Below are positions 10,946 through 12,747 of a stretch of DNA of 12,747 bases, in pieces (positions within the stretch are counted from its first letter, which is position 1; every line of letters starts with the position of its first letter). Under the pieces are notes generated by a model, which saw only the letters and a list, made by a program, of their open reading frames with translations, was not told where the DNA came from and did not search any database. A program made the translations under genes and the position numbers. Source of the DNA: Escherichia coli (GTDB taxonomy: Bacteria > Pseudomonadota > Gammaproteobacteria > Enterobacterales > Enterobacteriaceae); the NCBI RefSeq assembly GCF_003334255.1, contig NZ_QOWU01000081.1; one strand, written 5' to 3'.

Positions 10946-12747
10946 ATGAGTAAAGTCTTTATTTGCGCCGCTATTCCTGACGAACTGGCAACAAGGGAAG
11001 AAGGCGCTGTGGCTGTAGCCACAGCCATTGAAGCTGGCGACGAACGCCGTGCTCGAGCAAAATTTCACTGGCAATTCCTGGAACATTATCCGGCTGCTCA
11101 GGACTGCGCTTATAAATTTATTGTCTGCGAGGATAAACCCGGCATACCCCGCCCTGCCCTCGATTCCTGGGATACCGAATATATGCAGGAAAATCGCTGG
11201 GATGAGGAGTCAGCTTCCTTTGTACCGGTCGAACCTGAATCCGATCCGATGAACGTCAATTTTGACAAGCTGTCCCCTGAAGTACAGAACGCAGTCCTGG
11301 TTAAATTCGACACATGCGAAAACATCACCGTTGATATGGTGATTAGCGCACAGGAATTACTACAGGAAGACATGGCAACATTCGGCGGACATATCGTTGA
11401 AGCGTTTATGAAAATGCCAGAAGTTAACTCCATGTATCCTGAACTTAAACTGCATGCCATCGGGTGGGTTAAGCATAAATGTGAGCCTGGCGCTAAATGG
11501 CCTGAAATTCAGGCAGAGATGCGCATCTGGAAAAAACGCCGCGAAGGTGAACGCAAGGAAACCGGAAAATACACGTCTGTTGTTGATCTCGCCCGTTCCA
11601 GAGTAAACCAACAGAACACTGAAAACGCTGCTGAAAAAAACGGAGCTGTCACTGTTGCCGTTCGCCGCGAATACAAACAGACATGGAAAACTCTCGACAA
11701 TGAGCTGGCCTGCGCCCTCTGGCCCGGTGATGTGGATGCGGGAAACATTGACGGCAGCATCCATCGCTGGGCAAAAAATGAAGTTATCGACAACGACCGC
11801 GAAGACTGGAAGCGTATCTCGGCATCAATGCGCAAACAGCCTGAAGCACTTGGCTATGACCGTCAGACTATTTTTGGCCTTGTCCGTGAACGTCCGATCG
11901 ACATTCACAAAGATCCCGTGGCGCTGAACAAATACATCACTGAATACCTGACTACAAAGGGCGTGTTTGAAGATGAAGGAACAAATCAGAGCACAACTAA
12001 TACTCTCCCGTCGCCAGTACCAGAAGCTGATGCAGTGGAAACGGCAATGCCGGACAACGAAAAAACCGAATGCAAAGTGGAAGTCGAACCATCTGTAGAG
12101 CGTGAGGGGCCGTTCTACTTCCTCTTCACCGACAAGGATGGCGAAAAATACGGTCGCGCAAACAAACTTTCTGGTCTGGATAAGGCGCTGGCTGCCGGGG
12201 CAACTGAAATCACGAAAGAAGAATATTTTGCCCGCAAAAACGGCACATACACAGGTTCACAACAAAATACTGATGCATCTGACACGACCGCACAACCAGA
12301 CCTGGTAAAAGTTACCGCTGACGAAGTAAACAAAATTATGCAGGCAGCCAGTATCAGCCAGCCTGACGCCGATAAGTTGCTTGCTGCCTCTCGCGGAGAA
12401 TTTGTTGCAGGGATTAGCGACCCGAATGATCCGAAATGGGTAAAGGGGATTGAAACCCGCGATTCTGTGCACCAGAACCAGTCAGAAACGGAACAGTACG
12501 ACCAAAAAGCGGAACAAAACAGCCAAAATGCGTTACAAAACGAGCCAGAAACGAAACAACCTGAACCAGTAGTGCAACAGGAACCGGAAAAGATCTGCAC
12601 CGCCTGCGGTCAGACCGGCGGCGGCAACTGCCCTGATTGTGGCGCGGTGATGGGCGACGCAACATACCAGGAAACATTCGATGAAGAGTATCAGGTTGAA
12701 GTTCAGGAAGATGATCCGGAGGAAATGGAAGGCGCTGAACATCCACA
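10946..12747 (+). CDS. recE: RecE-like protein (exonuclease VIII family), N-terminal 600 codons; continues beyond the window end
   Basis: Continuous open frame from ATG 10946 (first codon after an in-frame TAA) to the window end; absent from the ORF track because it has no stop. Segment [33 protein letters not shown] matches a linker I recall from E. coli RecE. Putative zinc ribbon [16 protein letters not shown]. Position matches recE in Rac. The N-terminal 470 aa are not recognisably RecE-like to me. Confidence 0.55.
   Translation, partial: [600 protein letters not shown]

Follow-up and report, generated by a model that had tools for sequence, protein, structure and literature searches.

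The 12,747-nucleotide (nt) stretch of Escherichia coli DNA analysed here (contig NZ_QOWU01000081.1 of assembly GCF_003334255.1; hereafter the window) ends within a plus-strand reading frame (10946..12747; frame +1 from the ATG at 10946) that stays open, without a stop, for 600 codons up to the edge of the window. A TAA in the same frame ends at 10939, the sole start candidate is the ATG at 10946, and the sequence GAGG is found 5' of it. As judged from near-identical full-length copies, the frame probably comprises the first 600 of the 823 codons of an intact ydfE-type prophage 'exonuclease' gene, encoding YdfE_N and YdfE_C domains followed by an Rv2179c-like DEDDh domain that is situated outside the window. 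This type of gene is already catalogued and very common: it has Pfam and PHROG families of its own and the NCBI label 3'-5' exonuclease, and the 1.8-kb query was matched in 4792 of 5426 complete E. coli genomes as well as in about 30 phage records. Amino acids (aa) 1-255 share 91% identity with ydfE, a pseudogene of the Qin prophage of E. coli K-12; P0001, a database protein without a mismatch over the 600 aa, has precomputed Pfam matches to PF27430 (YdfE_N), PF27432 (YdfE_C) and PF16473; and PHROG 2082 (phrog_2082) covers the full-length protein from end to end (1-823 of 823). An older Pfam release that does not contain the YdfE_N and YdfE_C models gave no match when scanned on the 600 aa, which is probably why an initial reading of the DNA letters (the sequence-only reading) took the N-terminal ~470 aa to be unrecognisable, a description that these family assignments overturn. 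A literature search for YdfE turned up incidental mentions only. The possibility of a pseudogene or relic was considered and rejected, since thousands of genomes, and the viable isolated phages Tritos, Evi and mEp460, have an uninterrupted frame of 823 codons.

The window ends before the C-terminus of the present copy, which was therefore read across from identical and near-identical sequences. The full-length gene measures 2472 nt (823 aa) in the genomic record L001 (99.6% nt identity), in L004 (96.2%) and in phage Tritos. In the L001 gene, PF16473 (Rv2179c-like 3'-5' exonuclease) is located at aa 641-813 and is matched over its whole length (model positions 1-177 of 177, E 5.5e-67), and the sole significant sequence match of the full-length protein in the PDB is DexA of phage T4 (8KEL/8KEN, E 6.6e-8). 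Residues D646, E648, D746, H796 and D801 align with DexA D7/E9, D119, H186 and D191, which are catalytic residues of DexA as listed by Kang et al. 2025 (PMC12153337), and the pentad is conserved in L001, in Tritos and in P0002, a protein 99.5% identical to the present one. The domain beyond the window has the sequence of a complete DEDDh 3'-5' exonuclease of the Rv2179c / T4 DexA family. DexA and its E. coli homologue EcD are homologous to this domain and share the DEDDh pentad, but are single-domain proteins, whereas a RecE-type scaffold of 625 aa precedes the domain here. Rv2179c of Mycobacterium tuberculosis, the founder of PF16473, is a standalone 3'-5' exoribonuclease; it belongs to the same Pfam family, which is matched here over the whole model, and because no PDB sequence match to Rv2179c was obtained at E<=10, DexA is regarded as the closer relative.

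A minority variant of the gene, encoding proteins of 900 aa (P0014, P0033, P0034, P0049, P0066, P0096 and P0109), is ~90% identical over the 600 aa and consists of YdfE_N, YdfE_C and DUF3799 (PF12684), with recT, lar/ralR and a DUF1187 gene following. The DNA of the L001 and L005 genes is homologous over nt 1-1874 at 91.9% identity and not at all thereafter, which would place the junction at about window position 12819 (~aa 625), ~72 nt past the end, so that the answer was not visible to the sequence-only reading and the window alone cannot decide between the two C-termini. Both P0001, the sole database entry that matches the 600 aa at every residue, and the 99.5% identical P0002 are of the DEDDh type. 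In each of the six genomes whose DNA is 99.5-99.6% identical, as in every match to the whole window, the gene is annotated as exonuclease or 3'-5' exonuclease and is followed by xis/int, and every genomic copy examined that is at least 96% identical is of the DEDDh type.

The encoded protein is likely to be a mosaic, in which YdfE_N is followed by a middle domain distantly shared with RecE, then by an insert, by a stretch almost the same as in RecE (aa 471-626) and, beyond the window, by the DEDDh exonuclease. All of the segments inside the window are on the plus strand. The YdfE_N domain (aa 1 to ~205; 10946..11560) has a mixed alpha/beta and then helical fold that is restricted to this family, and is swapped with the RecE_N domain (PF06630) among relatives. 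It is followed by an all-helical middle domain (aa ~240-345; 11663..11980), supported by an AlphaFold2 (AF2) model with a predicted local distance difference test (pLDDT) score >90 and by BLASTP and NCBIfam alignments to RecE, in which it corresponds to residues ~278-351 at 26% identity. No other module of the family is shared as widely as the helical domain; a probe made from this domain detects most of 60 long relatives, whichever N-terminal type they possess. Next comes a small insert module (aa ~386-435; 12101..12250) that lies opposite a gap in K-12 RecE and is flanked on both sides by low-complexity linkers; a probe of aa 386-470 matches relatives of the YdfE_N type. A conserved peptide of 33 residues (aa 474-506; 12365..12463) is identical to K-12 RecE 454-486 at 30 of 33 positions and forms an invariant block in an alignment (A1).

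Four cysteines with the spacing CxxC-x7-CxxC (C551/C554/C562/C565; 12596..12640) constitute a putative zinc ribbon, in which CTAC occupies aa 551-554 and CPDC occupies aa 562-565. K-12 RecE has an equivalent stretch, CNACGQTGGDNCPDC, at residues 517-531 (C517/520/528/531). All four cysteines are retained in every intact homologue that has this region, and only truncated forms and deletion derivatives have lost them; the motif is present in 9 of the 60 long relatives, accompanying DEDD, PD-(D/E)XK and other C-termini. The Pfam model Zn_ribbon_3 gave a weak match to RecE (E 4.8) and none to the query. The last segment before the end of the window is an acidic linker (aa 576-600; 12671..12745; 48% D/E) that runs toward the junction at ~aa 625.

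On alignment with K-12 RecE (exonuclease VIII), the description 'RecE-like' fits only the non-catalytic part of the protein, namely the middle domain (weakly), the conserved peptide, the putative zinc ribbon and the acidic linker. BLASTP aligned aa 262-626 with RecE 278-592 (E 2e-63), and the NCBIfam exonuclease VIII profile NF007259 matched aa 226-626 (E 1.3e-85; profile positions 251-603 of 877) without reaching its equivalog cut-off (288.2 bits, 1269 being required). Identity to RecE is 91% over aa 474-506, 87% over aa 536-600 (RecE 504-566) and 82% over aa 471-600. No match to PF06630 (N-terminal Exonuc_VIII) was found in the 600 aa or in the 823 aa, whereas the same scan located it at RecE 2-178, and hhalign aligned YdfE_N with RecE_N at 61.7% probability over only 79 columns. 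PF12684 is absent from the full-length 99.6% identical gene, whereas the same scan placed it at residues 615-850 of K-12 RecE, the PD-(D/E)XK nuclease domain of which we take to be residues 606-866. RecE of the Rac prophage and the present gene type are alike in their position in the early-left operon ahead of xis/int, in the lengthy non-catalytic region ahead of the nuclease domain, and within that region in the near-identical peptide, the four-cysteine and acidic linker segment, and the more distantly related helical domain. They differ in the N-terminus (PF06630 in RecE, YdfE_N here), in the C-terminus (a PD-(D/E)XK 5'-3' nuclease in RecE, a predicted DEDDh 3'-5' exonuclease here) and in the genes that follow, since recT, ralR and rcbA are not downstream of the present gene type.

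These comparisons bear on several points of the sequence-only reading, which had correctly recorded the open frame from 10946 to the end of the window, the 33-residue RecE-like peptide and the two CxxC pairs. Its statement that only this linker segment resembles RecE is too narrow in view of the BLASTP and profile matches, which span most of aa 226-626, and of the 87% identity of aa 536-600; its statement that the CxxC...CxxC motif is not a feature of RecE is incorrect, given the equivalent stretch in K-12 RecE. The name 'RecE-like' holds for the non-catalytic middle, peptide, zinc ribbon and linker and fails for the C-terminus, which is DEDDh in near-identical copies, as it does for the profile score of 288 against 1269 bits. 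Similarly, the suggestion of a variable N-terminal module is borne out insofar as there are two types (YdfE_N and PF06630), although the domain carried at the C-terminus (hereafter the payload) is the more striking variable. A RecE-like protein, by the same reading, ought to possess the RecE nuclease domain and a recT partner; in near-identical copies, PF16473 takes the place of the former and xis/int the place of the latter, so on its own terms the assignment to RecE does not stand.

The family to which the protein belongs is narrow, as 1.84 billion representatives, searched exhaustively, yielded only 236 relatives, and those AFDB matches that have organism names are all from Enterobacterales. 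Module combinations were read by segment queries against the 60 long members, in which YdfE_N or RecE_N comes first, then the helical middle domain, in some cases an insert and in some a block of conserved peptide and zinc ribbon, and finally a C-terminal payload; across these members the modules combine freely. The DEDDh payload is present in the ydfE-type gene and also in P0134, where it is joined to RecE_N, and the PD-(D/E)XK payload is present in K-12 RecE and in P0034. A third payload domain, found in 14 members, had no match in the PDB by sequence and profile searches; fold comparison identified RAD52 (rank 57 by Z; many of the higher-ranking matches were coiled coils aligned with the C-terminal helices), a moderate result by which the domain is a probable Rad52-like annealase. 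A fourth payload (P0125, P0246, P0264) corresponds to phrog_26058, is about 240 aa long with the conserved end 'QQLTIAALxGLCANPA', and has no recognisable function; the proteins bearing it may be the nuclease-less 'RecE-2' proteins of PMC12315714. Genes of all payload classes share one location within the early-left operon, with kil/dicB on one side and xis/int on the other. The DEDDh payload is associated with the absence of recT for both N-terminal types (P0134 also lacks it), and in comparison with the DEDDh-type genes, recT follows only the 900-aa PD-(D/E)XK variant. The family has the appearance of a constant scaffold with a variable catalytic end, the N-terminus being of two types and the payload of three or more.

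Some further features of the family were noted. A gene of the Sipho_Gp157 family (L009/L010:7367-7927) follows the gene for P0133, which has the probable Rad52-like payload (aa 517-789), with overlapping stop and start codons, and may encode a partner. The proteins P0259, P0158 and P0192 are deletion derivatives within the family: two of them join 'ASGANAGGGN' of RecE (~aa 250) to the zinc-ribbon half 'GGGNCPDCG' through GGGN microhomology, and one is an in-frame RecE(1-526)::RecT fusion.

Upstream of the exonuclease gene, the plus strand of the window encodes the small RNA DicF (10238-10289; Rfam, 62 bits), dicB (10477-10665) and a DUF1482/ydfD-like gene (10662-10850), the latter two according to the annotation of L004, L001 and phage Tritos. 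Together with the exonuclease gene these reproduce the order of the dicBF operon of K-12 Qin, intact here, and the exonuclease gene is the last early-left (dicF-dicB) gene of a lambdoid prophage, ahead of xis/int. There is no recT downstream in L001, L004, Tritos or L008, in all of which a DUF4224/excisionase gene and then an integrase gene follow. No promoter-like or plus-strand terminator-like site was found in the sequence ahead of the ATG. YdfE of K-12 Qin is the product of the same gene with the same neighbours (dicF, dicB and ydfD, with int downstream), but is truncated by IS2 after ~255 codons, whereas the copy in the window shows no interruption over the part that the window covers. 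Phage Tritos has the 823-aa gene at 90% nt identity in an identical gene order, but its backbone is not that of the prophage in the window, which is of the ompW-integrated kind. Tritos is the prototype of a class of phages that possess a nuclease, lack a single-strand annealing protein (SAP, annealase) and an anti-RecBCD function, and are rich in Chi sites (Zheng et al., Genome Res 2025, PMC12315714); DnaQ-like 3'-5' nucleases occur in lambdoid Rec modules according to the same study. The window contains 1 Chi site where 0.3 are expected, a count taken from 12.7 kb only.

The prophage in the window is itself a mosaic, in that the window as a whole is 99.4% identical to ompW-integrated prophages, yet the exonuclease allele of these prophages matches at only 96.2% (in comparisons with L001, L004 and L007), whereas the allele in the window has a 99.6-100% identical counterpart in a yccA-integrated prophage that has a different (lambda-P/DnaT) replication module. 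Elsewhere in the prophage early region, the minus strand encodes the hokD toxin gene with sok antisense RNA (window ~3223-3548; Rfam RF01794, 120 bits) and, among replication and early genes, a gene annotated as epoxyqueuosine reductase QueH (3616-4281), a tRNA-modification function that is unexpected there. Also on the minus strand, opposite to the plus-strand early-left operon, a hypothetical gene of 148 aa (9327-9773) lies between a DUF1391 gene and dicF; it is annotated in related genomes and has no known domain. In NZ_CP145707.1 (2060954-2077283), the region homologous to the window is split by a group II intron (with the reverse transcriptase/maturase gene ltrA), stretching the match to 16.3 kb.

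From membership of the DEDDh family and homology to DexA, the C-terminal domain would be expected to remove nucleotides from 3' ends by two-metal catalysis, and since DexA is its nearest relative of solved structure, the substrate is likely to be DNA. The non-catalytic region of ~625 residues may be a scaffold or targeting arm that, during lytic growth, brings the payload to DNA ends or to intermediates of recombination. This role is suggested by the series of payloads and by the N-terminal region of RecE, the function of which was called unknown in a 2023 review, yet which is reported to boost linear-linear recombination (PMC11611040). In phages of the Tritos type, speculatively, trimming of 3' tails could let the host RecBCD-Chi-RecA pathway act on phage DNA ends. 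RecBCD requires blunt or nearly blunt ends, and the Tritos class is nuclease-only and Chi-rich, which makes such trimming plausible. The full proposal, that the non-catalytic RecE/YdfE region is a portable targeting scaffold with interchangeable payloads, and that its DEDDh form conditions phage ends for RecBCD-Chi in phages that have no annealase, is put forward tentatively and must be regarded as doubtful.

Several considerations weigh against this proposal and the assignments beneath it. Exonucleases that degrade single-stranded DNA 3'-5' usually depress homologous recombination (PMC12315714), which weakens the idea that the enzyme assists recombination. The 3'-5' exonuclease activity and biological role of the fusion protein are predictions, and it is from the architecture that a scaffold or targeting role is surmised. 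Structural relatives of the two N-terminal domain types were not found outside the family, so no binding partner can be proposed. RNA is also a possible substrate, as PF16473 is named for the exoribonuclease Rv2179c. The window stops ~72 nt short of the junction, and the C-terminus of the present copy is one deduced from its relatives rather than read. Finally, a close allele (L004:16946-19417, strain S1-KEN-03-A) has the substitution D746E at the Exo II catalytic position.

The main alternative role, in which the lysogen rather than the lytic phage would benefit, is that of a prophage anti-phage defence nuclease of the 'HREX' kind, degrading the 5-hydroxymethylcytosine (5hmC) DNA of T-even phages. 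Defence would account for the very high prevalence of the gene, defective prophages included (DEDD-domain DNA is present in 4070 of 5426 E. coli genomes, in up to 7 copies each), and the adjoining gene dicB, which is reported to protect against some phages, can be counted in its favour. There is also a precedent in EcD, which degrades T4 DNA and protects cells (Kang et al. 2025, PMC12153337), and the catalytic residues are conserved in the present gene type. EcD, however, is apparently a short standalone protein (A78 being opposite DexA D90) and not an 823-aa fusion, and its selective form has lost the D90 tetramer residue (PMC12153337), whereas this residue is retained as D718 in all copies examined here, in a low-identity alignment of approximate register. 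Of the two DexA residues proposed to read 5hmC, W152 is opposite Y766 (aromatic, but not Trp), and D169 falls outside the reliable alignment. With no promoter signal of its own and a place farthest downstream in an early operon under repressor control, the gene should be silent in the lysogen; PADLOC found just a generic CRISPR-associated DEDDh model (E 4e-5); and the interchangeable payloads are recombination enzymes. On balance a defence role is considered unlikely. The notion that EcD is a fragment of the 823-aa protein was also entertained and rejected, as no start puts an alanine at EcD position 78 opposite DexA D90.

Still less probable is a lytic host-takeover nuclease that degrades the 3' ends of host DNA or RNA for nucleotide recycling, with a scaffold that has no specific targeting role. 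Temperate lambdoid phages are not known to degrade the host chromosome, and recycling would leave unexplained both the strong conservation of the scaffold (82-91% identity to RecE in aa 471-600) and the fact that the same 625-aa scaffold carries, at the same locus, the RecE nuclease (with RecT) or a Rad52-like annealase. In support of takeover may be cited the expected early-operon expression alongside the host-shutoff genes dicF and dicB, the inclusion of an exoribonuclease in the Pfam family, and the homology to DexA, one of the two roles of which in T4 is the scavenging of host DNA (PMC12153337). Least probable of all is a genuine 5'-3' exonuclease of the RecE type whose N-terminus has diverged, with the PD-(D/E)XK domain past the window and recT beyond: although 900-aa genes with PF12684 followed by recT, lar and DUF1187 do exist and the junction falls outside the window, these variants are only ~90% identical and account for about 7 of the top 120 clusters, whereas the identical and 99.5% identical proteins are of the DEDDh type and the 99.5-99.6% identical genomes, like the whole-window matches, lead into xis/int.

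If the non-catalytic RecE/YdfE region is a portable targeting scaffold, the N-terminal region of RecE would gain a defined role as a recruitment hub. The occurrence of one scaffold with three predicted DNA-end activities at one operon position offers a handle on its function. The common database label 'exonuclease VIII / RecE', given for example to the gene of phage Tritos and in annotations of the CP-933P style, is incorrect for the ydfE-type DEDDh architecture, so neither 5'-3' resection nor recombineering activity of the RecET type is to be assumed for proteins so labelled. The ydfE-type exonuclease is among the most widespread uncharacterised enzymes of E. coli prophages.

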